Below are positions 20-64,000 of a stretch of 64,000 nucleotides of DNA, piece after piece; positions within the stretch are counted from its first letter, which is position 1, and every line of letters begins with the position of its first letter. Below the pieces are notes generated by a model. That model had not been told where the DNA came from, searched no databases, and worked only from the letters and a program-made list of their open reading frames with translations. The translations under genes were made by a program, and so were the position numbers. This DNA comes from an uncultured Chloroflexia bacterium (GTDB lineage Bacteria > Chloroflexota > Limnocylindria > Limnocylindrales > CSP1-4), in contig CAVVNQ010000006.1 in assembly GCA_963749705.1 (NCBI GenBank), positions 176,650-240,649 of the forward strand. The letters run 5' to 3'.

Positions 20-371
20 GCCAGACAGTTGCGCGGCCGAGACCCTGTTCCGCGACTGGGACGATCTCACGGCCTTCTACGACTACCCGGCCGAGCACTG
101 GATCCACCTGCGCACGAGCAATCCGGTCGAGTCGGTCTTCGCCGGCGTCCGGCTGCGGACCAACGTGTCCAAGCGGATGCGTCGGCGCGACTCGGCCCTC
201 TACCTGGTCTTCAAGATCACCCAACGGCTCGAGCTCGGCTGGCGACCGCTCAACGGCGGGCTGACCCTGATGACCCTCCTGCTGCGTGGTGCCCGCTTCG
301 TCGACGGAATCTACATCCCGGCCGACATCGAGCGTCCGGACGACCCCGGAGAGGAGGTATCCGCGGCCTGA
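12..371 (+). pseudogene. IS256-family transposase, C-terminal fragment
   Basis: TAFYDYPAEHWIHLRTSNPVESVFAGVRLRT is the IS256/Mutator catalytic-Glu region; N-terminal part absent. Confidence 0.85.
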
Positions 372-2845: not shown

Positions 2846-3688
2846 CTAGCGTCTTGCGTCAACCCCAGGGGTAACCCCGGACGGACCGACGCCTTCCACG
2901 AACGGATTCCCGTGACCATTGGTCACGACCGACAGACCCCCGTCAACCATCAAGCTGGCGCCGGTGACGAAACTCGCCTCGTCCGATGCCAGGAAGACAG
3001 CGGGCCAAGCAATCTCGTCCGGCTGACCTATGCGACCGATCGGGTGGATGCTGCCTGCCCGTCGACGTTCGGCGTCTGGATCCGCGAATGTTGCCCAATA
3101 GTCGCTTGTCTGCTGCGTCTCGACATAGGCTGGACAGATTGCGTTGACTCGAATGTGGAGTGCGGCGTACTCGACGGCAAGTGCGCGGGTCAGACCAATT
3201 AGGGCGTGCTTCGCCACTGGATATGGGAAGGCACCAGGAATGATCTGAAATGCGTGACTCGACGCGATGTTGACGATGCTGCCGCCGCCTACCCGAAGCA
3301 TGTGCCGAATCACTTCGCGGCTCAGCCACCAGGACCCGTCGAGGTCGACCGAGAAACAGCGTCTCCACTGCTCCTCAGACAGCTTCAGTGGGTCCGCGAA
3401 TACGTCGACTGCGGCATTGTTCACCAACACGGTGGGTGGCCCGTATAGACCGACTACTTGCGCCACAAGCTCAACGATCGATTGTCGCTTGCTTATGTCG
3501 GCACTCACGAACTGGGCATCGTGTCCGGCTGACCGGAGCGTCGCCGCCTGGCGTTCGCCGACGCTGGCGGTCCGCTGCGCAATTACGACCCGTGCTCCTT
3601 CCTCAGCAAACCGTCGAGTGATCGCCGCCCCTATCCCCTGACCGCCACCCGTGACGATGGCTACCTTTCCCTTCAGCCTTTCGCCCAT
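2846..3688 (-). CDS. SDR oxidoreductase, GalD-like aldose 1-dehydrogenase
   Basis: TGGGQGIG, NNAA, SSHAFQIIPGAFPYPVAKH (YxxxK); ATG 3688 with AGGAGG RBS. Confidence 0.85.
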   Translation of the reverse strand: MGERLKGKVAIVTGGGQGIGAAITRRFAEEGARVVIAQRTASVGERQAATLRSAGHDAQFVSADISKRQSIVELVAQVVGLYGPPTVLVNNAAVDVFADPLKLSEEQWRRCFSVDLDGSWWLSREVIRHMLRVGGGSIVNIASSHAFQIIPGAFPYPVAKHALIGLTRALAVEYAALHIRVNAICPAYVETQQTSDYWATFADPDAERRRAGSIHPIGRIGQPDEIAWPAVFLASDEASFVTGASLMVDGGLSVVTNGHGNPFVEGVGPSGVTPGVDARR

Positions 3689-5059: not shown

Positions 5060-5713
5060 CTAGAAGATGCCGAATGTCCTGAACGCATCAGATGCGCTTG
5101 CGCCACCTTCGATCGCCTCCCTCATGCGCTCTTCTTCATGCATCTTCTCCAGCGCAAGCCCCAGCACCTCAGCTTCGACGATCTTCGGGACGACCAACAC
5201 GCCGTCGCGGTCACCGACAACAAGATCTCCCGGGCTGACGTCCACACCGTGGACATCGATCCGCACGCGAAAGTCAACGACCACCGACCTGAACGCGGCG
5301 TCCTGCGCATACGACCCACGGCTGAACACCGGCCAGGACTGCTCCAAAATCCGGTCGGTGTCGCGATGGAAAGCGTTGACGACTGCGCCCACAGCTCCCC
5401 GGCGCCGCGCCGCTGCGGTCATCAGCTCCCCCCAGGCGGCGCACGGGAGATCTCCACCAGACGCGAGGTAGACGTCGCCCTCTTCCAACTGGTCCAGCGC
5501 TGCCGTAAGGTTCGCGAACCCCTGCCCTCTGACCTTTGTTGAGGCCGCCAGCTGCACCGGCATCGCTCGGCCCACCACCCTCATGCCGGTGTCGATCGCA
5601 CGAACGTCGGCCGGCAGGAACTGGGTCATGTAGCCCATCGTGTCGAGAATGTCCCCCAGAACCGCGGTGTAGAGCCTCTCCCGGACGACGAGATCGACGG
5701 AGTTGTCAGTCAC
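5060..5713 (-). CDS. RraA/HMG-aldolase family protein
   Basis: YTAVLGDILD, AAWGELMT, GDLVVGDRDGV; start placed at GTG 5713. Confidence 0.85.
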   Translation of the reverse strand: MTDNSVDLVVRERLYTAVLGDILDTMGYMTQFLPADVRAIDTGMRVVGRAMPVQLAASTKVRGQGFANLTAALDQLEEGDVYLASGGDLPCAAWGELMTAAARRRGAVGAVVNAFHRDTDRILEQSWPVFSRGSYAQDAAFRSVVVDFRVRIDVHGVDVSPGDLVVGDRDGVLVVPKIVEAEVLGLALEKMHEEERMREAIEGGASASDAFRTFGIF

Positions 5714-5892: not shown

Positions 5893-7345
5893 CCCGGATC
5901 CACCGAACCTCATCGTCTGATGGGTCGATGACGGGCGCGGGGCCCCGATCGAGCCGTTGGCGGGGCATGGCCGGGCGAAGGACGGTCGATGGACAGCCGA
6001 AGCAGGCTCCCACGGCGTCGCCGACCGACGGGGGGTCGATTTCTTCCCACGCTCCCGCCAGCCCCGGATCGGCGACTGGTGATCGCGCTCAGGTCAGGCG
6101 AGGAGCGGCATGGCCCGGAACCGCGCCAGGGCTGCCGTCCAGTCGATCGCCCAGGGCCAGCGACCCGGCAAGTGCAGCGTGACCCGCCGGGCTGAGCGGG
6201 TGAGCCGCCCGACGAGCCCGAACAACCGCCGCCGGAGGGTCTTGGTGGTGACGATCCCGGCCCCCAGACCGAGCCGCGCCGTCCAGCGGGCGAGGTTGTG
6301 CGCAATGACCTGGACCGCGAGCCAGGCGCCGTTGGCCGCGAACCTCCCGGACGGCAGGTGGTTGAGCCCCATGCCGTACTTGAGATCCCGGATCGCGTTC
6401 TCGATCTCGGCGTGCCGGCGGTGGTCCGCTTCGAGCTCCAGCATCTCGCCGTCGCGGTCGGTGATGAACGCGTGGTAGTCGTACAGGGTGAGGAGCGCGA
6501 GCTGGCTGCCTGGCGTCGGCTTCACCCGGCGGACGATGAGCCGGACCGGGACCGCGTCCTTCTCGTCGGCGAACGGGACATAGCTGGTCTCGGCGACATC
6601 CGCCCCGCCCCCGATCCAGTACGGGATCGGCGTCCAGTCTGACTCCGGGATCGCCTCGATGAGGCCCCGGAGCTTGCGGCCGTGCAGCCGCGCCGTGATC
6701 GAGAAGCGGACATCCATCGCCCGGCAGACGGCGACGACCGCGTGAGCATAGAAGCCGGAGTCGGCGCGCATCGTGAGCTCGCCCATGGCTCCCGCGGATC
6801 GGACCCGCCCGATCGTCTCGCGCAGGAAGTGGGCGGCGCCCCGGACCGTGGCGGCCCGTCCCTCGCGCAGCCTCGCCATCAGCACGTCGCCCGTGCCGGC
6901 CGCGACCGCGAGCAGCGGGTGATAGCCGCGGACGTGGGTGTACCCGTGATGGATGGCACCCTCCTTGGCCAGGCCGTACGTCTCGCAGATCGTGGAGTCG
7001 AGGTCGATCGTGAGGGGTGCATCGCCCGGACCCGCGCCCGCCGCCCACGCCCGCGCGAGGAGCTCCCGGCTCACCCGGTCGAGCTGGCGGACATGGCCCC
7101 AGCGGAAGCTGCGCAGGAAGGTGCCCAGGGTGGAGGGGGCCTTGACGCTGAAGCCCAGGATCCGGCTGGTTCCGCCGGCGCGCAGGGCGTCCGCGTCGTC
7201 GATCGAGTCGCCGCCCGCGAGCGCGGACATGATGAGCGTGAGCAGCTTGTCGCCCACGTTCGCCCGGCCGGCAGCCCGGCCCAGATCGAGGAACCGATCG
7301 ACCAGTCCCTTCAGGCCCAGGTGGAGAGCCAGGGTGGCAGGCACG
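5893..7345 (-). mobile_element. IS1380-family element, 5'-truncated
   Basis: Right end ...TTCGGTGGATCCGGG next to a CTAA target; left end and first ~25 codons missing. Confidence 0.75.
6094..7345 (-). pseudogene. IS1380-family DDE transposase lacking its native N-terminus
   Basis: APSTLGTFLR, TIDLDST, GYHPLLA, MRADSGFY, HRRHAEIENAIRDLKYG, LPSGRFAANGAW. Confidence 0.88.
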
Positions 7346-9189: not shown

Positions 9190-9465
9190 ATCGAAGGTCA
9201 AGCCCTCCGGACCAGGCCAAGCGTGAGGCATTCGCGAGGCTCATCGCCGAGGGCGTTCCCTCGGCCCGGGCGTGCCGGGTTGTCGGGCCCAACCGCGCAC
9301 CTGCAAGCGGTGGCGCAACGGGCGCCGCATACGTCCGGCGGTCGCGTGCTGGACTATGGCTCCCGTGATCACCTCCGTTCCCGAGAGGCAGTATTCACCG
9401 CGATACCTGTCCGCGAGGACGAGCGCGTGCGCCTGGCCGACCTGCGCCGGGAGGGACGCACGAAC
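9190..9465 (+). pseudogene. IS30-family transposase N-terminal fragment (second, inverted copy)
   Basis: REAFARLIAEGVPSARACRVVG and YSPRYLS..ERVRLADLRREG, matching the N-terminus at 10262-10561. Confidence 0.75.
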
Positions 9466-9469
9466 GCAC

Positions 9470-10603
9470 CGACCTCTGTGGACTTGGGGAAGTAGTCGCG
9501 GAGCATCCCGTTCGTGTGCTCGTTGGTGCGCCGCTGCCATGACGAGTGCGGGTCGCAGAAGTAGACGCCCGTCGAGCCGAGGGCCGCGGCGACCTCGGCG
9601 TGGCGGGCCATCTCGGCGCCCTGGTCCCAGGTGAGCGTCCGGCGCAGCCCGGGCGGCAGCGCGCCGAGCGCCGCCACGACGGCGTCGCGCACGGTCGCCG
9701 AGTCCCGCCGCGCCCCGGGCAGGTGGCCAAGCAGCGTGTACCTCGTGGTCCGCTCGACCAGCGTGACGATCGCCGACACGTGCCCCCTGCCCATGATCAG
9801 GTCACCCTCCCAGTGCCCGGGCTGCTCGCGGTCAAGCGCGGACGCGGGCCGCTCGCGGATCGGGGTCATGCCGGCGACCGGACCGGTCCGGCGGGCCTGC
9901 GCGTCGCGCCTGCGGAGCCTCCGCCGGCGCCGGAGGCGCAGCACCCGACCCGGGAGCTCACGGGGGAGGCCGCCGAGGTCGGGGCGGTACACGGCCTGGT
10001 AGATAGTCTCGGCGCACAGCCAGCGACTGGCCTGGCCGGGGAACCGGCGCCGGAGGCCGCGGGAGACCTGCTCCGGGCTCCAGCGCGCCAGGAGCCTGCC
10101 CGCGACCCAGCCGCGCAGCTCGGGGTCCACGGACAGTCGGCTCGGGCGGCGCAGCCGGCGGCGGCCCAGCGCCTTGCGGTGCGCCTCGAACGGGCGGAAC
10201 CGGCCGGCGTCGTCCGCGCCGCGCCGGAGCTCCCGGCTCACCGTCGAGGGCGACGCTGCCATCATGGCGGCGATGTCTCGCGCACGCCGCGCCCCTCGAG
10301 GCGCAGGTCGGCGAGCTGGATGCGTTCGTCCTCGGACAGGTAGCGCGGGGAGTAGTGCTTCTCGGGGACGGGGGTGATCACGGGCGGCAAGTCCAGCACA
10401 CGGCCGCCGGACGCGAGTCGCCGGCCGTTGCGCCACCGCCTGCCGGTGCTTGGGTTGACCCCGACCATGCGCGACGCCCGGGCCGAGGGGACGCCCTCGG
10501 CGATCAGCCGGGCGAACGCCTCGCGCCTGTCATGGTCGGGACTCTTTCCTCGGCGGCCCATCGCAACTCCTCGCGGGTGTTGCGACGCTCGCCAGATTCC
10601 GCC
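9470..10603 (-). mobile_element. IS30-family element with frameshifted, C-truncated transposase (ATG 10561)
   Basis: STVSRELRR, WSPEQ, PGHWEGDLI, TLTWDQGAEMA, NEHTNGMLRDYFPK; IRL GGCGGAATCTGGCGAGCGTCGCAACAC starting at 10603. Confidence 0.88.
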
Positions 10604-12199: not shown

Positions 12200-13516
12200 C
12201 GACGATCCACCGGTCCCCCAGGTCGGGCGCTCGCGCGGCTTCCTCGTGGCTGGACGTGTTCCGCCACGAGCGCCTGCCGTCGTGGGCGCTGGTGCGCCAT
12301 GAGATGGACCGCACCGAGATCGACGACATCGACGCGGCCGTGAACGCAGCGATGGGCCCGGTCCGCGATCGCCTGCCGCGCGGCGGCCGCGCGTGCGTCG
12401 CGCTCGGAAGCCGTGGGATCGACCAGATCGACGAGGTCGCCCGCGCCACCGTGGGCGCGCTCCGTGCCGCCGGCCTCGAGGTGTTTGCCGTGCCCGCGAT
12501 GGGCAGCCATGGGGGCGCGACCGCGGACGGTCAGCGCGGCGGTGCTCGCATCGCTGGGGATCCGCGAGGACACCATCGGCTGCGAGATCCGCTCGAGCAT
12601 GGAGACCGTGGAGATCGGCGACGTCCACGGCGTGCCCGTGTTCGTGGATCGCGAGGCGCTCTCGGGCGCCGACGTGATCATCCCGATCAACCGGGTGAAG
12701 CCCCACACGGACTTCTCGGGACCCATCGAGAGCGGGCTGCTCAAGATGATCGCGATCGGCCTCGGCAAGCAGCGCGGTGCCGACACGTTCCATCGCGAAG
12801 GGTTCTCGACGTTCGCGGAGCTGATCCCCGCGGTCGCCGCCCACACGCTCGCCGCGGCACCGATCCCGTTCGGCCTGGCGCTGATCGAGAACGGCTTCGC
12901 GCGCCTCCGGCGGATCGAGGCAGTCCCGGCTGCCGGCATGTACGAGCGCGAGCAGGCGCTGCTCGCCGAGGCCGACGGGTACCTCGCGCGGCTGCCGATC
13001 GCGGCTCTCGACGTGCTGATCCTGGACCGGATCGGCAAGGACGTCAGCGGGCTGGGCATGGACTCCAACGTCGTGGGGCGCTACTACACGGGCCCGACCG
13101 GGCGGGACCCGCTCATCCAGCGGATCGTCGTGCGCGACCTGACCGATGCAACCGAGGGCAACGCCGTGGGCATCGGGATGGCCGACGTCGTGCTCCGGCG
13201 GGCCGTCGACCGCATGGACGCCGCCAAGACGTACATGAACTGCGTCACGGCCAAGACACCCGAGGGCGGGCGCATGGCGCTGACGGTTGACACCGACGGG
13301 GAGGCACTGGACGTGGCAATCGCGTGCTGCCTCAAGGTGCAGGCGGAGATCGCGCGGATCGTCCGCATGCTGGACACGAAGCACCTGGAGTGGTTCTACG
13401 CGTCTGAGCCGCTGGTCGACGAGCTGCTGGCGACCGGGGCCTGCGAGCTGGCCGGCCCGTTGACGCCGATTAGATTCGACGCTGCCGGACGGTTCACGGA
13501 TGCGCTGCCGATCTGA
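12196..13516 (+). CDS. LarA-like (DUF2088/DUF362) racemase-domain protein, one frameshift at ~12538
   Basis: GSRGI, VPAMGSHGGATADGQ then AVLASLGI, NRVKPHTDF, ESGLLKMIAIGLGK, GKDVSGLGMD. Confidence 0.82.
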
Positions 13517-54212: not shown

Positions 54213-55199
54213 GTGACGGCCTTGGCTCGCGACGTCGACATCCTGGTCGTGGGCGAGATCAACCCGGACGTCGTCGTCTCGGACCCGGACCCCGTCCCCG
54301 TGTTCGACGAAGTGGAGCGGGTGGTCGGGTCCATCCACCTGACGGTCGGGAGCTCGTCCGCGATCTTTGCCTGCGGCGCGGTCCGCCTGGACCTCCGGGT
54401 CGCGTACGTCGGTATCGTGGGCGACGACCCCTTCGGGCGGTTCATGCTCGATGCGATGAGCGCCCGCGGGATCGACGTCACGGGGTGCACGGTCGATGCA
54501 ACCCGGCCAACCGGCGCCACCGTTATCCTCACCAGCGGCCACGATCGCGCGATCCTCACGGCTATGGGGACGATCGGCGCGCTGGACGTCGACACCGTCC
54601 CCGAACCCCTGCTGGCCCGGGCGCGCCACATCCACTCGGGGTGCTTCTACCTCCAGGAGACGAGCCGCGAGCGCCTCCCCGCGTTCTTCGCGGCTGCGCG
54701 TGCGCGCGGGACGACGACCTCGTTCGACACCAACTGGGACCCGAGCGGATCGTGGGACGGCGGCGTCGCGGCGATGCTCCGCTCGGCCGACGTCTTCTTC
54801 CCGAACGCTGCCGAGGCGCGCCGCATCACCCGTCTGGACGACGTCGAGGAAGCGGCGCGAGCCCTTGCGGTGGCGGGTACCGCGGGACGGACCGACAGCG
54901 GTCCGATCATCGCGGTGAAGCTCGGTGCCGGGGGGGCACTCGCCTGCACGGCCGACGGCCCGCTGGTCCGCGTCCCGGCGATGCCCGTCGCGCCGGTGGA
55001 CACGACGGGGGCGGGCGACTCGTTCAACGCCGGCTTCCTCCGGGCGTGGCTCGAGGGCGCGGACCTCCGGGAGAGCCTGCGCTGGGGGGCGGTCTGCGGC
55101 GCGATCTCGACGCTGCGGCTCGGCGGGATCGACGGGCAGCCCACCCTCCCCGAGGCGCGGGTGGCGCTGGCGTCGTGGGGCGGCGGCGATCGAGGATGA
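54213..55199 (+). CDS. PfkB-family carbohydrate kinase
   Basis: GSSSAIFA, VGDDPFG, DTTGAGDSFNAG. Confidence 0.9.
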   Translation: MTALARDVDILVVGEINPDVVVSDPDPVPVFDEVERVVGSIHLTVGSSSAIFACGAVRLDLRVAYVGIVGDDPFGRFMLDAMSARGIDVTGCTVDATRPTGATVILTSGHDRAILTAMGTIGALDVDTVPEPLLARARHIHSGCFYLQETSRERLPAFFAAARARGTTTSFDTNWDPSGSWDGGVAAMLRSADVFFPNAAEARRITRLDDVEEAARALAVAGTAGRTDSGPIIAVKLGAGGALACTADGPLVRVPAMPVAPVDTTGAGDSFNAGFLRAWLEGADLRESLRWGAVCGAISTLRLGGIDGQPTLPEARVALASWGGGDRG

Positions 55200-56156
55200 C
55201 CGGCACCACGGGGAGGCCGCGCCTGCTGTTCGTCGCGGCGAACCCGTCGATCGACCGCCTCTACGAGATCGACCTCCTGGTCGGGGGTGCCATCCACCGG
55301 CCGGCCGCGGTCGTCGCGCGACCCGGCGGTAAGGGGCTCAACGCGGCCCGGGCCGCGGCCTCGCTCGGCGCCCGCGTCACGGCGGTCGGGATCGTCGCCG
55401 GGCGGGCCGGCGACTGGATCGTCGAGAGCCTCGCCGCCGCGAGCATTGACGCACGGATGGCACGCTCGGCGGGCGAGACCCGGACCTGCGTCTCTATCCT
55501 CGATCGGTTCACGGGCTCGCTGACAGAGCTGTACGAGCCCGGCGAGGCGATCGGACCCGACGCCTGGGCGACGCTCGAGGCGATCGTGGTTCGCGAGCTC
55601 GATCGAGGGGATGCGGGCTCGCTCGCATTCTCCGGCAGCCTGCCCCCGGGGGCGCCCGACCGACGGCTACGCGCGGATCGCGCGGATCGCCAACAACCGG
55701 TCCGTCCCCGTGCTCGCAGACGCATACGGACCCGCGCTCGCCGCCGTGCTTGCCGAGCGCCCGGCCGTGGTCAAGGTGAACGCGTCCGAGGCCGGCGAGG
55801 CAGCCGGCCTGGCCGTCTCCGATCCGCGATCGGCCGTGGCCGCGGCGCGTCGCCTCGTGGAACGCGGGGCCGCAGGCGTCATCGTGACGCTCGGCGTGGA
55901 CGGAGGGGTCGTCGTGACCGCGAACGAACAGGCCATCCTCATGCCACCGATTGTCCGCGGCTCGTATCCCGTGGGGAGCGGCGACGCCTTCCTCGGCGGC
56001 CTTGCCGTCGCGCTCGGCGGTGGCGAGGCTCTCGTCGAGGCTGCCCGGCGCGGCATGGCCGCGGCGATCGCTAACGCTCTCGTACCCGGGGCCGGCGACC
56101 TGGATCCCTCGGAGGTGGAACGGCTGCTCCCCGCCGTGGTGATCAGCCGGATTTGA
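55196..56156 (+). CDS. 1-phosphofructokinase/LacC-family hexose-phosphate kinase, frameshift at ~55660
   Basis: NPSIDR, PGGKGLNAAR, GETRTC, SGSLPPG then KVNASE, VGSGDAFLGG. Confidence 0.85.
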
Positions 56157-56158
56157 CC

Positions 56159-56245
56159 CGCGTGGGGTCAGAAACCCGGATTCGATCGTGCGGCGACGCC
56201 GTCGTGGTCGCGGATGACCCCGCCGAGCAGATCCCTGAAGGGTTC
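56159..56245 (-). mobile_element. 3' tip of integrase-core (rve) transposase element, copy B
   Basis: Minus strand RDLLGGVIRDHDGVAA; shares GAAACCCGGATTCGATC with 51061-51077. Confidence 0.6.
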
Positions 56246-56328
56246 ATCTTCACTCGACATGGTTCGGCCGGGGAGCGCCGCATGGCGCCTCCCCGGCCGT
56301 CTATTGCACCTGTTGACTCCACACTCCC

Positions 56329-57032
56329 CTACTGCGCGCCGGCCGGGACGCGGAACCAGCTGCGGCTGCGCGCCGCGTTGTGGACCACGTCGAGGTAGAC
56401 CTCGCTGTAGGGGACGCTGCCCTGCTCGGTGACTGCCCAGAGGCAGTTGAGCATCGCGCTTGCGACCATCAGGTTGGTCACGACGAGCTGGGGCCGTTCG
56501 GCCGCGAGGACCGCACAGCCGGTGCCCGGCATGACCTCCGAACTGGCCGCCTGGCCGATCTCCGGGTGGATCTCGACCAGGTGGCCATCGACGCTGTACC
56601 CGTCGCGGCGGCGGACGAGCTGGACGTTGCCGTCCGTCTCGTCGTTGCCGCCACTGATGAGCGTCACGTCCGACAGAGCCGGCGATGTGCCGGTCGACGA
56701 GCGCCCGCGTCGGGTGGTTGTCGACCGCGAGGAGGACAGAGGTCTCCCTCGCGGACGACGAGCCCGACGTTGTCGGGACTCACGTACGCGGCGATTGCCG
56801 CGACCGCCAGCCCACCCCCACGGAACACCTGGGCCAAGGCCTCGGCCTTGTTCGTGCCCAGGGCGTCATCGGGGAACAGCTGCCGCGACCGGTTCGAGAT
56901 CTCGTAGGCGTCACCGTCGACGAGGACGAGGAGCGGTCGCGGCTCCGGGCGGAACGAGAGGTACCGGACGAGCGAGGGGAGCAGCTGGCTCCCGATGCCG
57001 CCCAATCCGATGAGCACGACCCGCTCAGGCAT
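56329..57032 (-). CDS. ThiF/E1-like ubiquitin-activating enzyme (two +1 indels, ~56738 and ~56677)
   Basis: GLGGIG, VDGDAYEISNRSRQ, NKAE, restored LAVDNHPTR, ISGGN, candidate catalytic Cys in GTGC, QLVVTN. Confidence 0.85.
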
Positions 57033-57860
57033 CGGTCTCACCGCCCTTCCGACCCGACCCGCTGACCGGGACGAGCGAGACGGTGAGCTGGAGCCCAAGG
57101 TCTGCGGCCAGGCGGTCCGCCCGAACGAGCGCGACGTCGAGATCGACGCGGCTGGCTCGGGACGTACCTCGACCCGGGAGCCGGGCCATGGCGCCCGCCG
57201 ACCCGGGTCGGCGGCCCTTCGCCTTCGACGGCCGTGGCGGTGGCAGGAGCTTGACTCGCTGACACCACGCCTCCGGCGGCTCGACGAGCCGCCGGGGCCG
57301 TTCCAGGACGGCGGTCACCGGGACCGCGAAGCGGCGTCCGTCGACGGCAATCGCCGCCGAATAGGACGGACGCCGGTCGAAGCCACCGACGATGACGTGC
57401 AGCCCGTCGAACTCCGCCTCGTCGTCTTCGTCGACCGCACTCGCCCCAGGCGCCGAAGGCCCCGTGGCTGTGGATCGACCCGACGACACGAGACCCAGCT
57501 GGCAGCTCGGCCTCGTCGAGCGTGTGGCTCACCGAGGCCGGGCTCACCCTCTGGTCGGGCACGAACAGATCGAAGCCCTCGCCCGCCCACAGCAGGAGGA
57601 CGAGCGCCTCGGTCCGCTGCGCCCGGTAGATCGAGCGGAAGAAGCCGACGACGCGGGCCATCTGGTCCGCACGGGATCTTCGGCAGCCCGTACTCGACGT
57701 ACTCGGTCTCAGGGGGCAGGTGCTCGGCGCCGTCGACCTTCGTCTGGCTCACGCCGAGCAGGCTCCGCTTGCGCAGATACAGCCCGTCATGGGCGACGAG
57801 GAAGGCCGGCAAGTCGGTGTCGGCCGCCGCCGGTGACCCCGCAGGAAGGATCGGGAACAT
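57025..57860 (-). CDS. JAB/JAMM (Mov34) metallopeptidase, PRTRC protein A-like (two +1 indels, ~57671 and ~57448)
   Basis: FLVAHDGLY N-domain, RTEA Glu, restored HSH-x7-S-x2-D (HSHGAFGA[G/W]ASAVD), DGLHVIVG. Confidence 0.85.
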
Positions 57861-57861
57861 C

Positions 57862-58125
57862 TCACTCCCCTTCCCGCTCGGTCGCCGGCAGGCGGTAGAC
57901 GAGGTGCTCGAGCTCGCGGAACCGCGATCGCTCGCGGGTCAGCTCCTCGCGCAGGACTCGTCCGGAGGCCCGAAGGACCGTCACCGCGATCGAGAGGGCC
58001 GACGCTTCGAGCCCGACGAGCGGGTTCGCAGGGTCGGCGACCCGGAGATGCGGTGCCAGCAGGCTCCCGAGATCCGTCGGTCGGGCGACCGGCAGTCCCC
58101 GGATGGTCTCAGGCAGCGAGGTCAT
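57862..58125 (-). CDS. 87-aa hypothetical protein inside the Ubl operon
   Basis: GGAGGTG RBS; stop 1 nt before JAB ATG; helical charged C-terminal half. Confidence 0.6.
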   Translation of the reverse strand: MTSLPETIRGLPVARPTDLGSLLAPHLRVADPANPLVGLEASALSIAVTVLRASGRVLREELTRERSRFRELEHLVYRLPATEREGE

Positions 58126-58879
58126 CTGCCTCACCTCCGTCGGTCATCGGGTCCGGCGTCCGGACGTCGGTCTCGGTCGCGTCGTCTGGGATCGGCGTGA
58201 CCGCCGGCAGGTCCGTGGGGGCCACGCCGGCCATCGGGCAGCGACCTGGCGGAGGGTCCGCCAATAGGGGTCGTAGGCCATCGAGAGGGCGGCGAGCGGA
58301 TCCCGCCGCGAGCGAGACGCCCAGGCCCGGAAGCCACCAGCTGAACGGCAGCGGATGGCGTCGCAGGTCCTGGTTGAAGCGACTCGACCAGAACGCGCCG
58401 ATCAGCGCGTCCACGCGTTCGCCGACGGTGGCGCCGCTGACCCTGACCGAGCCGAGACAGACGAGCCCATCGTCGCTCGTGTTGGGCAGGGTCGAGCAGG
58501 ACAGTCCATCGTCGATCGAGCGCAGGGGCGCCGACCGGAAGTAGGTCGCGAGGCCCTCGATCTGCTCGCCGTAGGTCGAGACGACGAACACGACGTACGG
58601 CAGGGCGATCCGATGTGAGGTCGGCTCGCCGTCCGATCGCCGGCTCGCGTGGTACTCGATCGTCCGCCGCATCGGGGCCTGCTCGGTGACGAAGACCGTA
58701 CGGCCCGTCGACCCTGCTCGGAACCAGAAGCGGCAGCCGGTTGGCAGCCGTGGGCTCAAGTGAACCTGGGTGGTGGTGAGCTCGGCGAGGAGGTCCGGGA
58801 GCGCGACCTCACGGTCGATGACCTCCGATACGAGACTCACGAGATCGCCTTCGATGCGCAGGAATGTGCGCGACTGCAT
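58109..58879 (-). CDS. Prokaryotic E2 family D-like ubiquitin-conjugating protein (compensated indel pair)
   Basis: IALPYVVF, LPNTSDDGLVCLG (PN..G.xC), AFWSSRFN; shifted frame gives FRAWASRSRRDPL; AAGGAAAGGAG RBS. Confidence 0.8.
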   Translation of the reverse strand: MQSRTFLRIEGDLVSLVSEVIDREVALPDLLAELTTTQVHLSPRLPTGCRFWFRAGSTGRTVFVTEQAPMRRTIEYHASRRSDGEPTSHRIALPYVVFVVSTYGEQIEGLATYFRSAPLRSIDDGLSCSTLPNTSDDGLVCLGSVRVSGATVGERVDALIGAFWSSRFNQDLRRHPLPFSWWLPGLGVSLAAGSARRPLDGLRPLLADPPPGRCPMAGVAPTDLPAVTPIPDDATETDVRTPDPMTDGGEADDLAA

Positions 58880-58992
58880 GGGGAATGAGCTCCTTTCCTT
58901 GGGCGATCGGTCGCCCTGGGGCCAGGGCCCGGCGCGCCGCATGGCACCGCCGGACCGCTGGGAACCCTCTGGGTGTGGCCGAAGCCAACGTG

Positions 58993-59232
58993 TCAGGCAG
59001 GCATGCCTTTCACGCCGGCTGCCTTCTGGAACTCGATCTCGTCGCCCGGGCGCACGACGTACTCGTCGTCAGCCCGGGTGCCGTTGACCGTCACGACCGC
59101 ATCGCGGGGAATGTTGAAGACCTGTTCGAGGGTCTTCCAGATCCCGCGGACGGATCTGCCGGCCAGATCGAGGTCGAGCTCGTTGACGCCGTAGATGACC
59201 TTCGTCGTCTCGGCGATCTGCATCGTCTGCAT
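58993..59232 (-). CDS. Ubiquitin-like beta-grasp (ThiS/MoaD-fold) protein with C-terminal extension
   Basis: 79 aa; VTVNG..DEYVVRPGDEIEFQKAAGVKG-MPA; GGAGG RBS. Confidence 0.88.
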   Translation of the reverse strand: MQTMQIAETTKVIYGVNELDLDLAGRSVRGIWKTLEQVFNIPRDAVVTVNGTRADDEYVVRPGDEIEFQKAAGVKGMPA

Positions 59233-59871
59233 CAGAAACCTCCATGTGGAACGAACGCCGCATGAGAAGCGGACCGGGGCAGACGAGCGCAGGCGCGGCA
59301 CGCTGCACTCGGATGCGATCGACGAGGATCGGCCCGGTCCAGCGCGGTTGACTCGACTCGAAATCGAGCGCCGACGGACGCGCAGGCCGCCGGCTCGAGT
59401 GCCAACCCCTTCGGGGCATCACCTCCATTCCGGCGCAGATGTCATCCGCCACAGGTGAGTGGAAGGGAGTCCCGACCGGGCAGGCTCGAGCCGTCGCCTG
59501 AGCAACGCCACAACGAACCGAAACCGGTCGCGCCGCCCCCAAACGAAGGCAGGCCACGACCGAGATCCCGGATCGTCGAGGAGCATTCCTCACGACGACC
59601 GATCCCCGGTCGGACTCCGTCCACGCCCTGGTGGCGGCACGCCTCGCGCGATCGCACGCATCGAAGAGCGCGCGATTGGCAGCGCTATGTGGGGTTGTTA
59701 AGGTGCTTCAGTCGCCCTGGACCGCAGAGGATCCCGACGCCGGCGCTGGTTGGGTCACGGCAACCGCCGTGGGAGCTCGTGCCGGGGAGCCCGCTGCCCG
59801 TTCGACCATCGAACGTGGCGGGCGACTGAAGCGCTCAGGTACGCATCCACTGGCCTCAGTCGCCCGCGGTC

Positions 59872-59900
59872 AGCGTGCGGGCTGCCTAGAGCAAGGTCAA
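59872..59900 (-). promoter_or_regulatory. Putative sigma70-type promoter for the Ubl operon leader
   Basis: TTGACC (59900-59895), 17-nt spacer, CACGCT (59877-59872). Confidence 0.4.
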
Positions 59901-59907
59901 TGGCAGA

Positions 59908-59926
59908 TGTGTACAGCATTGTGTAC
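59908..59926. repeat. TGTGTAC-N5-TGTGTAC tandem heptamer, copy 2
   Basis: TGTGTACAGCATTGTGTAC. Confidence 0.6.
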
Positions 59927-60057
59927 TCTTCCAGCGTCACAGCGGTGGTCGTCCGCGACTCGTCGAGCCTACCCCACCAGACGCGGGACTTCGCAACGGG
60001 ATAAGCATGAGCGCCCTGGGCGGACGGGTATGAACCGCGAGGAATCCGCGATCATAT

Positions 60058-60768
60058 TCAGTCCGGTCGGCCTTCGACCAAAAGGGCGAAGGCGGCGCCT
60101 CGGTTCGTCGCGGCACCGCGGGGAGCAGCCTCCGCAGCAGGGGCGCGGGCCGGTGGGTTGGTCGCGGCCAGTGGCGGCGTGCTGCAGATGCCCGGGGCGA
60201 GCCCCGCGCCGCAGCGAACGATCGTCTCGGTCACGTGGAGGATGTAGTGGTTCGCCCCGAGGTGATAGGCGACATCGACGCCGTCCCAGCCGCCCCCCGA
60301 GTCACCGTCGACCGAGAAGCCGATGAGAAGCTCCGTGAATGGTGTAGTGGGCTCGTCGCTGGTCGCACAAGTTGCGATAACGCTCGCCCCCGCAGCGGGA
60401 TCAAGGTGATCGGACACGCTCGGAGGTGGGTAACCCTCAATGCTGATGATCATCGTGTCGGATGCACTTCGGACGAAGGTGCGGACGAGGGCCCCCAGAA
60501 ATCGGCTGCCGGAGCCCAGCGAGAGCCCGGGGTCCACCAATTCGATCACCGCAGGACCGTCGGTGCCGACGACACACAACGGGATGCCCAGCGACCACGG
60601 ACCAGCCGCTCCCGCTGGAAAGGCCATTGTCGTCCCGGCCGCGACCGACGACAGCGGTCCCGCTCCATCGACGTGGCGCGTGGGCCCCGACCCCCCGATC
60701 GAGAACGCCAGGATCGTTGCCGCGGCGGCGAGTCCCGCCGCGGCAAACAACTTGCCGCCGTTCTTCAT
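60058..60768 (-). CDS. Hypothetical secreted/membrane-anchored protein
   Basis: N-terminal hydrophobic segment; ATG 1 nt after the upstream stop; several Cys. Confidence 0.6.
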   Translation of the reverse strand: MKNGGKLFAAAGLAAAATILAFSIGGSGPTRHVDGAGPLSSVAAGTTMAFPAGAAGPWSLGIPLCVVGTDGPAVIELVDPGLSLGSGSRFLGALVRTFVRSASDTMIISIEGYPPPSVSDHLDPAAGASVIATCATSDEPTTPFTELLIGFSVDGDSGGGWDGVDVAYHLGANHYILHVTETIVRCGAGLAPGICSTPPLAATNPPARAPAAEAAPRGAATNRGAAFALLVEGRPD

Positions 60769-60769
60769 T

Positions 60770-61942
60770 TTATGGAGTATTGTGCCCGATGTCCGTGATG
60801 CGGCTCGCCCTCGAGGGGTACGCGTTGCTGCCGCACAGGTACGACCACGTCTGAAGGCTGTAGACCGTCTTCTTGATGTAGTTCGAGGTCGTCGAGTAGT
60901 TGGTGTTTACGGAGAGCCCGATCCCGATAATGCTGGACGATTTGACCCCGCCCGAGAGCGCGTAGGCGCTGTAGGACGAGTCCTCTCGCTTCCAGACCCC
61001 GGCGCCGACGTATGCGCAATTGGCGCTGCTCCATTTGCCCTGGTACGAGATGGAGACCGTCTTCGCGCCGCCCGTCGGGCCATCCGGGTACATGTCGTAT
61101 TCCCATGTGCAGGAGTAGTACCACTTGCCGTAGGCCATCTCGACATCGTACTCGCGGTAGAGCGTGCTCGGGGTGGGCGTCCACGAGTAGCCCGCGGTCG
61201 TCGTATGCGTTCCGCTCTCGGACCAGGTCGAGCCAAGAGTCACGCCAACCCCGACGGTGACCGAGTGGCTAGAGGAGAGCTCGACCCATCCGGTCGAGGT
61301 GGAGTAGTACGGCCAGGTCTCGGCGACGCGCGTCCAGAACTTGTACGTCCCCACGCGGGTGCCGTCGCAGTAGTGGATGAGGGGGGTGACACTTGCGGTC
61401 GAGTCCGCGGTCGTGGATACCGTGCCGTGGAGCGGAAGCAGCGCCCGCACGTCGATCGAAGCCGGAGCCGCAATCGACGCCTCTGCGGCAGCCTGCTCCC
61501 GGTCAGGTGTGCCAAGCTGGGCGGAGAAATGCACCGTCGCCATCCCATCGCCGGTCCAGCCCAAGACGTCGACGTCAGCCTGCCCGGTGTCACTCAGATA
61601 ACCGTCGGGGAGGAGCGTCGGGTCGAGCCGGACTTGAAACCGCCCGCTTCCGTCGGTGCGCGCCCACCCGACGGTGGGGAACTTGACCAATTCGCCGACC
61701 GGCACGCGACGCAGGACCTGCTCGGTCGGCCAGGCCAGCAGGGCGACCCAGCCCGATGCAATCGCGCCGTCGCCGCCGGTCAGCCTGCCGGACGCAACGA
61801 TCGGGCCATGAGTGGCGCGGTGGAAAACGGCAGTGTCGAGGCCGACCGGGACGGATGCCGGCGACTCCGACGCCTGGGTGACGGATGGAGCGCCGGCGAG
61901 TACCAGCGCGACGACCATGATCATTGCGACACGGTGTCGCAT
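60770..61942 (-). CDS. Hypothetical secreted beta-rich protein
   Basis: Signal peptide MRHRVAMIMVVALVLAGAPSVTQA; ARTDGSGRF prealbumin-like motif; Ser/Thr/Tyr-rich C-terminal half. Confidence 0.7.
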   Translation of the reverse strand: MRHRVAMIMVVALVLAGAPSVTQASESPASVPVGLDTAVFHRATHGPIVASGRLTGGDGAIASGWVALLAWPTEQVLRRVPVGELVKFPTVGWARTDGSGRFQVRLDPTLLPDGYLSDTGQADVDVLGWTGDGMATVHFSAQLGTPDREQAAAEASIAAPASIDVRALLPLHGTVSTTADSTASVTPLIHYCDGTRVGTYKFWTRVAETWPYYSTSTGWVELSSSHSVTVGVGVTLGSTWSESGTHTTTAGYSWTPTPSTLYREYDVEMAYGKWYYSCTWEYDMYPDGPTGGAKTVSISYQGKWSSANCAYVGAGVWKREDSSYSAYALSGGVKSSSIIGIGLSVNTNYSTTSNYIKKTVYSLQTWSYLCGSNAYPSRASRITDIGHNTP

Positions 61943-62278
61943 CAGACAGCCCCCTTTCCGGCGCCCGCGAAGCTGCTCCGTTTCGCGGTAGCGCCCCGTG
62001 CATGTCATTGGCGCCGCTCAGTTGTCCCGTCGCACCTCCCCCGCTCGCCCCCGGATGACACGCTCCTCACACCGATATCGCCCCAGCCGCGCCCGTCCGT
62101 TCGGGACGGCAACCCGTGTGGCGGTCAAGGTCGTGGCAGCCCGGCCGCGGCACAAGGGCGCGTGTCGCCATGGAGTGCGGCACGAGTCTCGAACAAGAGG
62201 GACGTGGTTCGCAGTTGCAGCTGTATTCGTGGCGGCGGGGGCGTAGCCGCGCAGGACAGCCATCCGCGAGATGCTTCA

Positions 62279-62986
62279 CTAAGTTGCGGTCACCCGGGCG
62301 TGCCAGGAGATGTCGCGGGCAGGATCTCGGGCGATCGCCTGCAAGCGAATGGCGTCAACCAAGATGAAACGGCCGCGGCGGTGCTGGACAAGTCCGGCCT
62401 GAGCCAGGATGCGAACCTCATTGCCGACCCGCTTGCGCGAGGCACCGATCATCGCGGCAAGCTCTTCCTCGCTGAGGCGCACCTCGAGCGGCTCGCCTGC
62501 GGGGCTGAGATCGAGGAGCATGCCGGCGACGCGCTGCAGGACGCTGCCGCGGATGCTCCCGATCTCGATCTCGGTGTCCTCGAGCCGGCGATCGATTTCA
62601 GCGGCAATGGCCATCGCCAACGCCACGTCTCGGCAGGCCATGTCGACCAGCCGATGGGCGTCGATGTCGAGAAAGACGACATCCGTGATCGCCTGCACGC
62701 TGAGCTGGTTGCGGCGCCCGAGGAGGGCCCTTATGCCGACTGCGGCGCCCACCCCGACCCGCCGCAGCGTCACCTCGGAGCCGTCGATCCGGGTGGTGAA
62801 GGCGCGAGCGAGGCCGGACACGACGAGCCCGCACCGCTGCGGCTGGGCCTGATTGATGAACACACGCCCGGCGGGGATCTCGCGGAGCCGTTGGCCCTGC
62901 GTAAGAGCCTCGACCGACGCGCGATCGATCTCGGCCAAGAAACTGGCGTCCAGCGCCGCGCGAGCGATTGGATCGCTGAGCGTCAA
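62279..62986 (-). CDS. Crp/Fnr-family transcriptional regulator
   Basis: cNMP-binding fold (GLVVSG..DGSEVTL) and HTH SEEELAAMIGASRKRV; TTG start at 62986. Confidence 0.85.
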   Translation of the reverse strand: MTLSDPIARAALDASFLAEIDRASVEALTQGQRLREIPAGRVFINQAQPQRCGLVVSGLARAFTTRIDGSEVTLRRVGVGAAVGIRALLGRRNQLSVQAITDVVFLDIDAHRLVDMACRDVALAMAIAAEIDRRLEDTEIEIGSIRGSVLQRVAGMLLDLSPAGEPLEVRLSEEELAAMIGASRKRVGNEVRILAQAGLVQHRRGRFILVDAIRLQAIARDPARDISWHARVTAT

Positions 62987-63144
62987 TGCGGCCCCCCACG
63001 TCCCAAGTGGGGGTACCTGGCGTCCCCCCGGTGCACGGTCATCTTGTCTCAGTGTTGATATATACGCAATGCTTAGCTCAATTGAAAGTTGACTCTGATT
63101 GCCGCGTGCTCTATCCAAGCAGCCGCGGACGAGAGTGTTGGGAC

Positions 63145-63790
63145 AGCTTCCGCGTATGCGTTCGCATTCGGTGCCTGGATCGGCGTACGGATTACCCGCA
63201 TGACCTCCGAGCGCAGGACCGCGTCGAACGGCCCAGTCAACTTCGCGTCGCGGTCGCGGATCAGCAACCGGACCCCCGGCGAGCGTCCATCGAGCGCGAT
63301 GGCAAGGTTCCGCGCCTGCTGGGTCACCCACGCCGAGTCCGGGTGAATCGTTGATGGACTGATGTGGATCTGCCGGCTCGCGAGCTCGATGAACACGAGG
63401 ACGTATGGCGTCCGGGGCCAAGCGGTCTCCACGGTGAAGAAGTCGCACGCGATGATCCCGTGCGCCCGGGCCCGGAGAAACTCGGCCCAGGTGGGGCCGG
63501 TCCGCCGCGGTGCGGGCCCAGCTCGCGCAGTTCGGAGCAAGGTCCTTATCGTCGTGGCGCTGATGCGGATCCCGAGCTTGCGCAGCTCGCCCTTGATCCG
63601 GACGCAACCCCAGCGCGGGTTCTCCCGGGCGAGTCGCAGGATGAGCGCACGGACCTCAGGATCGATCGGCGGCCGGCCAGGGCGGCCCGTCCGGCGGTAT
63701 GTCCACTTCCTCAAGCACGAGCTCGCGGTGCCAGCGCAGGAGCGTAGCCTGGGTGACGAGGAAGGCGACCCAGCGATCGCGGACACGAAC
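63145..63790 (-). pseudogene. Integrase-core (rve) transposase, frameshifted and truncated at both ends
   Basis: VTQATLLRWHREL / GRPPID..LARENPRWG..IKGEL, ACDFFTVET, LIRDRDAK, TPIQAPNANAYAE. Confidence 0.85.
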
Positions 63791-64000
63791 AGCACGCGGA
63801 TCGGGTCGGGCATAGGGGTCGTCCTCCTGGCGCGGCCCGCAGCCGCGATGGTCAAATAGGTTCCCGCGTCGCCATACCAGGCGCACCACCCGGGTCCTAG
63901 GCACCGGTGACCGCGAGACCTTGACGTGGCGAAGTCAGCGGCGGACGATCGCGAATCGCGAGGGCCGTTCGAGCGTCACCGTTGCCGACGTCCCAGCGGG

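Follow-up and report, generated by a model that had tools for sequence, protein, structure and literature searches.

We analysed a stretch of 64,000 nucleotides (the window) from contig CAVVNQ010000006.1 of an uncultured Chloroflexia bacterium, whose minus strand carries five co-oriented, tightly packed genes at positions 59232-56329. They encode a ubiquitin-like protein (Ubl), a protein resembling ubiquitin-conjugating enzymes (E2), an 87-aa protein (orf3), a JAMM peptidase (JAB) and a minimal ThiF-type ubiquitin-activating enzyme (E1). The locus is probably one copy of a 3.7-kb mobile cassette, in which a structured leader RNA precedes five translationally coupled genes of a Ubl conjugation pathway of the 6d or Prok-E2_D class. 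We document the gene identities and catalytic motifs, the folds of the Ubl and the E2, the conservation and mobility of the cassette and the covariation within its leader. The window copy itself is interrupted by one-base insertions or deletions (indels) and is either mis-assembled or dead; the family searches reported here used the intact orthologs of a relative in the same genus (G006), and all their scores lay under the curated cut-offs.

Gene order and protein families

An earlier note, made from the window sequence, had read five tightly coupled minus-strand genes at this locus, and both the starts and stops of the genes and the recurrence of their order at 58 loci bear this out. The start of orf3 lies inside the end of the E2 gene, 1 nt separates its stop from the ATG of JAB, and JAB and E1 overlap at the stop of the former and the ATG of the latter. 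Ribosome-binding sites, which the note had reported for the first three genes, are indeed seen ahead of Ubl, E2 and orf3 and are of the GGAGG type (for orf3 the site is GGAGGTG, 6 nt before the ATG). The order is conserved throughout the loci collected from related genomes, and because the same five genes follow one another at 58 loci, chance is excluded for this gene set. All of the motifs quoted in the note are present, namely PNTSDDGLVC in the E2, E...HSH-x7-S-x2-D in the JAB, and GLGGIG, D..SNRSRQ and NKA in the E1, whose cysteine is the sole family-invariant one (C172). Coordinates of the genes and of the conserved stretches on either side of them are collected in Table 1.

Table 1. Features of the cassette in the window (all positions are those of the window; frame changes are given as seen in this copy)
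Feature	Position	Strand	Remarks
Ubl gene	59232-58993	-	79 aa, beta-grasp; AGVKG followed by a 3-residue tail (MPA); frame unbroken
E2-like gene, Prok-E2_D type	58882-58109	-	frame open, with ~35 codons (58342 to 58236) out of register
orf3	58125-57862	-	87 aa; translational coupling with E2 and JAB; frame unbroken
JAMM/JAB peptidase gene	57860-57025	-	in three frames, through +1 insertions near 57671 and 57447
E1 gene, minimal single-domain ThiF type	57032-56329	-	intact length 233 aa; broken by +1 insertions near 56735 and 56680
Conserved non-coding leader, candidate structured RNA	59233-59938	-	core aligned over 29 loci, 59228-59800; R1 sub-domain, 59298-59455
Conserved 3' end of the cassette	56255-56328	-	G+C-rich hairpin after the E1 stop, read from the sequence

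The Ubl matched Pfam ThiS with E=0.0028 for the window copy and 2.6e-4 for the G006 ortholog, below the cut-off. All 24 sequences aligned end in an invariant AGVKG plus one to three variable residues. An AlphaFold model (mean predicted local distance difference test score, pLDDT, 75) has the bb-a-bb order of a beta-grasp fold. Among the 50 Foldseek matches listed, almost all are ubiquitin-type or related beta-grasp proteins, with Urm1 the best (E=9.2e-4).

For the E2-like protein, the window copy matched Prok-E2_D (E=0.0032) and PRTRC_B (E=0.0031), and the G006 ortholog matched the same two models at 7.6e-5 and 1.9e-5. Against PF14460, the Pfam entry for Prok-E2_D, the window E2 reached 17.6 bits with a cut-off of 25; many close family members bear a precomputed PF14460 label. 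All 17 sequences aligned share the invariant residues N133, C141 and H175, and the motif LPN-x7-C-L corresponds to the classical HPN...C active site with its histidine replaced. The model of the G006 ortholog has a pLDDT of 85.4 and a predicted template modelling score of 0.73. In an exhaustive VIA search with this model, the top 28 rows were all chains of E2 or ubiquitin E2 variant (UEV) proteins, aligned over residues 42-202 at a moderate score (Z 5.3-4.0). The invariant C141 and the E2/UEV fold neighbours agree with the note, which had assigned the protein to the Prok-E2_D kind and had made its reading depend on a UBC-like fold with a conserved cysteine.

The G006 JAB matched Prok-JAB (E=1.5e-4) and PRTRC_A (E=1.1e-4). 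Residues E84, H130, S131, H132, S140 and D143 are invariant in the 28 sequences aligned, so the JAMM motif that the note had called intact is intact in the family; in the window copy it is split by the frameshift near 57447. The protein also has an N-terminal extension of ~80 aa with an invariant arginine (R30), and the only invariant tryptophan (W91) comes after the catalytic glutamate.

The strongest family match is that of the E1, for which the G006 ortholog gave ThiF at E=2e-16 and, over its full length, PRTRC_ThiF at E=9.8e-13, again under the cut-off. The ThiF domain is the only significant Pfam match over the 233 aa, and the protein has no rhodanese domain. MoeB is among its closest solved sequences (1jw9, E=2.5e-8). 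Across 22 sequences the invariant positions are GxGGxG, D39, N47, R50, Q51, K62, D104 and N105, together with the single invariant Cys172, which follows a variable loop.

In 28 aligned loci a homologue of orf3, 85-92 aa long, takes up this position between E2 and JAB: it overlaps the end of the E2 gene and terminates shortly ahead of the JAB gene. No relatives were found in Pfam, NCBIfam, PADLOC or PDB sequences, and the ESM Atlas returned only unnamed clusters below threshold. PDB sequences searched with profiles of E2, JAB and orf3 yielded nothing useful, the sole match being an enoyl-CoA hydratase at E=0.15. A complex prediction for E2 and JAB with orf3 as the partner scored 0.00 in two runs made without controls, a value that has no bearing on binding, and the pLDDT of orf3 was below 50 in at least one of these runs.

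Distribution and mobility

The window and three relatives of the same genus (G006, G014 and G008) share a block of homology of 3.68 kb (59938-56255), and the sequences that flank it are unrelated in all three. At the 3' side, homology ends at 56255-56256 with G006 and G014 and at 56327 with G008. We collected 58 cassette loci from contigs representing one genome per species. Of these, 56 lie in metagenome-assembled genomes (MAGs) titled Chloroflexi, Chloroflexota, Chloroflexia, Anaerolineaceae or Limnocylindr-. The other two are a 1.9-kb contig in a 'Legionella' bin (L024), which is 91% identical to the G006 copy and for which mis-binning is likelier than transfer, and a copy with many frame breaks in an Acidimicrobiia bin (L079). 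Judged by their titles, two MAGs each contribute four loci and a third contributes three.

Within the genus, the E2 gene was found in 4 of 25 genomes (G000-G024). The wider E2 family comprises 237 clusters at 90% identity; the 120 listed are 67-96% identical, and among the source names listed all but one read 'hypothetical protein'. More distant relatives amount to 977 representatives at E<=0.001, fused forms included.

In a subset of the loci an AAA_16-type ATPase gene lies directly downstream of E1; its BLAST cluster spans 21 loci, about ten of them with a clear full-length match. Other recurrent flanking genes encode HerA/FtsK/TrwB-like ATPases (15 loci), tyrosine recombinases (11 loci), Replic_Relax proteins (10 loci) and serine recombinases (8 loci). 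PADLOC returned nothing for the downstream AAA_16 ATPase or for the two open reading frames upstream in the window, and only the generic HerA/mad8 models for the HerA-like protein. Searches for the cassette on other replicons gave no tblastn match of the E2 in 72,556 plasmids (PLSDB) and no relative among IMG/VR viral contigs. When the left flank was compared across 60 genus genomes, no empty insertion site could be defined, because synteny in the flank ends at the first PfkB gene.

The cassette is mobile and moves among soil and freshwater Chloroflexota (Limnocylindria-type MAGs). Because genes for conjugation and integration recur in its flanks, we conclude that it often travels on integrative or conjugative elements.

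A candidate structured RNA upstream of the Ubl gene

A conserved non-coding stretch of ~560-700 nt precedes the Ubl gene. The earlier note had overlooked it, as it had the mobility of the cassette and the question of whether the indels are real. The stretch is 88-90% identical to the copies in G006 and G014 and 72% identical to that in G008, with unrelated flanks beyond it. The 700 nt before the Ubl start form part of the conserved block, and their DNA is at least as conserved as that of the genes. We considered whether the stretch could encode protein and rejected this, as the matches between loci were similarly poor and fragmentary in all six frames. No reading frame is kept from locus to locus, a codon hidden Markov model (HMM) trained on the host calls no coding sequence, and the indels that separate the copies do not come in multiples of three.

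RNAalifold, applied to an alignment of 29 sequences, predicted 106 pairs in 21 helices, 27 of the pairs with compensatory double changes. In this structure 95.4% of the cells are paired, compared with 30.6-44.4% when the partners are slid by 1-3 columns. Cells with double changes number 138, against 51.9 +/- 6.8 in shuffled alignments (0 of 500 reached 138). The covariation score is 0.231, compared with 0.165 for shuffled and 0.036-0.067 for slid alignments, the structure having been derived from the same alignment that was used in this test. Frequent G-U pairs fit the strand of the operon. From these features the leader is a candidate for a large, previously undescribed structured RNA on the operon strand.

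We built a covariance model of a sub-domain of 152 positions (R1), which matches the window at 59298-59455 with 140.6 bits. Full-length matches to R1 were found upstream of Ubl in 20 further loci, weak ones in a divergent subfamily included; loci L061, L062, L064, L066, L067 and L071 gave none. Of 61 genus genomes, 11 matched. Among G000-G024 four genomes have the R1 domain; these are exactly the four with the E2 gene, and in each of them the two are adjacent. No Rfam family matched either strand of window positions 55000-64000 at E<=0.1.

The stretch might instead act as DNA, double- or single-stranded (a transfer origin, an attachment site or a single-strand origin), or be merely a long 5' untranslated region with a promoter and an operator and no role of its own. 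It does sit at the edge of a mobile block, paired GTACACA repeats stand at its 5' end, and G-T pairs are tolerated in folded single-stranded DNA as well. However, the stretch is always co-oriented with the Ubl gene and directly upstream of it, and it goes with the genes rather than with any recombinase, the window and G006 copies having no adjacent integrase. In addition, ~21 helices with compensatory changes over ~560 nt would exceed the needs of known transfer origins. We consider a DNA element or a passive untranslated region quite unlikely.

An RNA that controls or partners the operon is the most likely role of the leader. A working component of the system, for example a riboregulator that licenses Ubl conjugation on sensing an element, whether invading or resident, or a scaffold or specificity factor for the E2, would be a bolder proposal, and one that we regard as doubtful. 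If it held, this would be the first ubiquitin-like conjugation pathway to which a large, dedicated non-coding RNA is coupled. For a ubiquitin-like system of any kind, so strict a tie to a large covarying RNA is unexpected.

Two smaller features of the leader were noted. At 59890-59940, the 5' edge of the block, two GTACACA repeats stand about 10 nt apart and are followed by TTGACC, an arrangement common to G006, G014 and G008; these could be an operator and a promoter for the leader. Locus L065 has two R1 matches (5530-5667 and 6433-6577) about 900 nt apart upstream of one cassette, which suggests a partial duplication of the leader. A promoter scan of 56100-60200 returned no sigma-70-like site. 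At the other end of the cassette, a terminator scan returned nothing at the 56255-56328 hairpin, and the two terminator-like sites that it did find lie at neither cassette end.

Relation to known systems

The set of five genes has a counterpart in the operon classes of Iyer, Burroughs and Aravind (2006; PMC1779556). Row 6d of their Table 1 and their section 14 describe a Ubl with a conserved C-terminal glycine, a largely alpha-helical extra protein, an E2-like protein, a JAB and an E1. In these passages the class 6d E2-like protein has a conserved cysteine, with the classical histidine replaced by an absolutely conserved one further downstream; the JAB is encoded next to the E1 and has an N-terminal alpha+beta domain in which an arginine and a tryptophan are strictly conserved; the extra protein is rapidly diverging and alpha-helical, with conserved charged residues; and the E1 lacks a rhodanese domain. 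The cassette shares the small Ubl with its conserved glycine and beta-grasp model, the E2 with C141 and a downstream H175 in place of the HPN histidine, the ThiF-only E1 and a small additional protein, a putative counterpart of the helical 6d protein in that slot. Its JAB has an N-terminal region with an invariant arginine but, unlike that of 6d, no invariant tryptophan ahead of the catalytic glutamate. Further differences are that row 6d lists no Chloroflexi, that the additional protein has no more than 85-92 aa, that the cassette proteins score just under the Pfam cut-offs, and that the 6d passages make no mention of a large structured RNA leader.

The cassette is probably a distant member of Iyer class 6d, the Prok-E2_D (PF14460) group that forms the core of PRTRC, and its architecture, already predicted in 2006, is not new. 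The earlier note had presented the 87-aa orphan as an extra subunit of a stand-alone variant. The gene is real and conserved, but because the list of parts equals that of class 6d, the extra subunit gives no new architecture.

The best relatives in NCBIfam, the PRTRC models, point to class 6d as well. The JAB, E2 and E1 of the cassette each match the corresponding PRTRC model (TIGR03735 PRTRC_A, TIGR03737 PRTRC_B and TIGR03736 PRTRC_ThiF); E2 and JAB match no other NCBIfam model, the E1 match spans almost the entire length, and both kinds of cassette are found on mobile elements. The cassette differs from PRTRC in that its Ubl matches ThiS and no PRTRC model, and in that ParB_N matches in this genome lie only on contigs C15 and C3, with none on the contig of the cassette (C6), so that the note was right to call the unit ParB-less. 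In a search of the genome PRTRC_B reached 17.1 bits, and among 14 control genomes it gave only a sub-threshold signal, in Bacteroides thetaiotaomicron.

Several results weigh against the assignment to class 6d and against the pathway proposed below. The bit scores of the G006 orthologs fall short of the cut-offs for Prok-E2_D (22.9 vs 25), Prok-JAB (22.1 vs 25) and ThiS (21.9 vs 22.5), and the three PRTRC matches fall so far short (21.8 vs 101.8, 24.1 vs 131.45 and 48 vs 144.75 bits) that membership in PRTRC itself fails. Foldseek of the E2 model against the PDB gave no match at E<=0.001, and a VIA Z of about 5 sits under the level that the tool calls safe. An experimental study of a 6d-type system was not found in the literature searched, which did not extend to supplementary tables that might list such operons. 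Finally, every step of the proposed mechanism is borrowed from other pathways.

The best family matches of the Ubl and E1 are ThiS and ThiF/MoeB, and a beta-grasp carrier with a single-domain adenylating E1 is what the ThiS/ThiF and MoaD/MoeB pairs also consist of. The cassette could on these grounds be a sulfur-carrier system for cofactor or thionucleoside synthesis rather than for protein conjugation. However, an E2-fold protein with an invariant cysteine and a JAMM peptidase are integral to it, the Ubl ends in KG plus a tail rather than in GG, and the E1 has no rhodanese domain. Among the neighbouring genes identified there is no partner synthase or rhodanese and no thiamine or molybdenum cofactor gene, in line with the note, which had seen no sulfur-transfer genes nearby. 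The cassette is, moreover, mobile and multi-copy. A sulfur carrier is therefore very improbable.

According to published accounts, names and studies now exist for each of Iyer's remaining four classes (6A-MBL for 6a, CBASS type II for 6b, Bil type II for 6c and Bub for 6e), and CBASS, Bil and Bub have been shown to carry out real protein conjugation. Class 6d is thus the last of the five bacterial E1/E2/JAB operon classes for which the literature searched held no experimental study. The Chloroflexota family is compact and highly conserved and has a 233-aa minimal E1, which makes it a convenient target for reconstitution of the simplest E1-E2-Ubl cascade.

Bub (formerly 6E/DUF6527) resembles the cassette as a bacterial E1/E2/Ubl conjugation machinery, and BubB is among the neighbours of the E2 model (Z 3.6). 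It is described as forming oxyesters, with a cysteine-less E1 and E2 and a DUF6527 serine protease, whereas the cassette has the invariant C172 and C141 and a JAMM peptidase. None of the five cassette proteins matched DUF6527 in Pfam (flanking genes were not searched for it).

Bil is closer. In the accounts of Bil (BilABCD, types I and II) the Ubl has a conserved glycine and a non-conserved tail that is removed by the JAB of the operon, and there is no E3. The order Ubl-E2-JAB-E1, the glycine-plus-tail Ubl, the E2 cysteine with a nearby histidine and the lack of an E3 are common to Bil and the cassette. The Bil E1 is described as a multi-domain IAD-AAD-CYS protein, whereas that of the cassette is a single domain, and the cassette adds the small gene and the RNA leader. 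PADLOC matched the E1 core only, to the BilD (E=1.1e-7) and E1-E2 models, far under the Bil cut-offs and with the alignment covering 207-320 of the 453-position BilD model; there was no match for Ubl, E2, orf3 or JAB, and hence none to BilA, BilB or BilC. The cassette is accordingly neither of the characterised Bil or Bub systems, from both of which the note had also set it apart.

The likeness to Bil raises the question of a dedicated anti-phage defence, in which the Ubl would tag a structural protein of the phage. The gene order is that of BilABCD apart from orf3, the Ubl has the same form, the E1 core matches BilD, and a patchy, multi-copy spread on mobile elements is typical of defence genes. 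However, the other four proteins go without a PADLOC match, the E1 does not have the form of BilD, and the recurrent flanking genes are those of conjugation and integration and not known defence genes. Related PRTRC cassettes occur on plasmids and on integrative and conjugative elements together with ParB, which suggests a role in maintenance of the element and also counts against defence. We regard a Bil-like defence system as possible but on balance unlikely.

Proposed pathway

For the 6d-class conjugation pathway that we favour, we infer every biochemical step, the target and the role of the RNA by analogy with Bil and with eukaryotic pathways. The JAMM peptidase would trim the variable tail of one to three residues from the Ubl and expose the invariant Gly76. 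The minimal ThiF-type E1 would then adenylate Gly76 and take the Ubl onto its invariant loop Cys172 as a thioester. From there the Ubl would move to Cys141 of the E2, whose putative active site is xPN-x7-C with Asn133 and the downstream His175. The E2, possibly aided by the 87-aa protein, would attach the Ubl to lysines of the target, and the JAMM enzyme could presumably reverse the attachment. Because integrative or conjugative elements often carry the cassette, its likeliest arena would seem to be conflict among mobile elements, phages and the host, and its function may be defence, counter-defence or control of transfer.

Frame breaks in the window copy

The earlier note had claimed that six single-base indels hide the operon in the window. 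DNA alignment with the three same-genus relatives confirmed both the number and the effect: there are exactly six one-base coding indels, a +1 near 58342 and a -1 near 58236 in the E2 gene and the four insertions in JAB and E1 given in Table 1. The copies in G006, G014 and G008 have E2, JAB and E1 genes without a frame change. By tblastn the intact G006 JAB matches the window in three collinear pieces (frames -3, -1 and -2), and the E1 likewise in three collinear pieces. The part of the E2 that is out of frame displaces ~20 residues that are invariant in the family alignment. At 56679, 56738, 57672 and 58339, the four sites covered by the matches listed, the extra base is absent from contigs (95-99% alike) of four further metagenome studies. 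A search of sequencing runs with sampled words of the genome met no run that contained half or more of them, the best share being 0.39.

The breaks could be consensus errors of the assembly, or the window copy could be a genuine pseudogene, the cassette having been inactivated in this lineage, perhaps because it is costly, and now decaying. Density is one argument for decay. The background rate of frame changes was estimated from 40 G006 genes with orthologs at >=70% identity (4 in 50.4 kb, 0.08/kb) and from 230 candidates called by a codon-usage HMM in 3.10 Mb of coding sequence (0.074/kb, with 36 clusters among the 230). Six indels in 2.9 kb are ~26x this background (Poisson P ~1e-7), a concentration that fits real local decay too. 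Three of the six lie outside homopolymers and five are insertions, which also speaks for decay. Three loci outside the assembly series discussed next (L042, L059 and L079) are frame-broken or truncated as well, so real decay may occur in the family.

Against decay stands, first, the pattern of substitutions. The window branch has 16 synonymous and 6 non-synonymous changes, with no excess of the latter. Comparison of the window with G006 or G014 gives a ratio of non-synonymous to synonymous rates (dN/dS) of 0.30-0.33; the value is 0.20 between G006 and G014, and 0.43-0.44 for all three against G008. The window value thus falls inside the 0.20-0.44 range of pairs of intact copies and gives no clear sign of relaxed constraint. 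Six independent neutral indels would be expected alongside many neutral substitutions. Secondly, frame-broken copies are concentrated in one assembly series: 9 of the 18 loci with the title prefix 'MFD' are broken, compared with 3 of the 40 others (Fisher p=5.8e-4). Thirdly, an unrelated neighbour is broken too. The second gene for a PfkB-family sugar kinase, just downstream of the cassette (55191-56142, plus strand), is split into two frames near 55658, which brings the single-base frame breaks in a span of about 2.8 kb to seven.

Consensus error is favoured because of the 16:6 ratio of substitutions, a dN/dS without clear relaxation and the concentration of breaks in one assembly series, and it is further supported by the broken PfkB gene and by the clustering of frameshift candidates genome-wide. 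We therefore consider that the six breaks are more likely errors of the consensus, as far as the alignments allow this to be judged, and that a pseudogene is the less probable of the two by some way, though it retains an appreciable share of our belief. The case offers a lesson for annotation: in some metagenome assemblies, clustered single-base indels can conceal a whole operon, and an E2 frame that looks open can still run ~35 codons out of register.

Single-base problems were noted at two further places. In G014 the Ubl gene (L008 ~3140-3150, codons 1-10) has an extra base near codon 10, and its N-terminus is unlike all others; even the relatives that served as references for E2, JAB and E1 thus carry such problems. 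In the window, the codon HMM placed a further candidate frameshift at 12526, between the same-strand coding segments 12248-12526 and 12527-13454.

Other features of the window

A sequence of 75-90 nt that separates the cassette's 3' end from the PfkB stop (56159-56249) has copies 79-91% identical at many places in many genus genomes. One further copy lies in the same genome (C6:227697-227765), and the sequence looks like an intergenic repeat of the repetitive extragenic palindromic (REP) kind.

Much of window positions 1-50000 has a G+C content of 60-68%, compared with 70-73% for the contigs of the genome; this large region, at the end of the contig, may have been acquired. Transposase-like genes, named from their translations without a family search, are present at 31-354, 6095-7336 and 9457-10520. 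A homolog of the AAA_16-type ATPase (61% over 255 aa) is encoded at G000:C6:175792-176541, ~100 nt before the window start and 58 kb from the cassette. It adjoins the IS256-like fragment at window positions 31-354 and may be a relic of another copy of the cassette.

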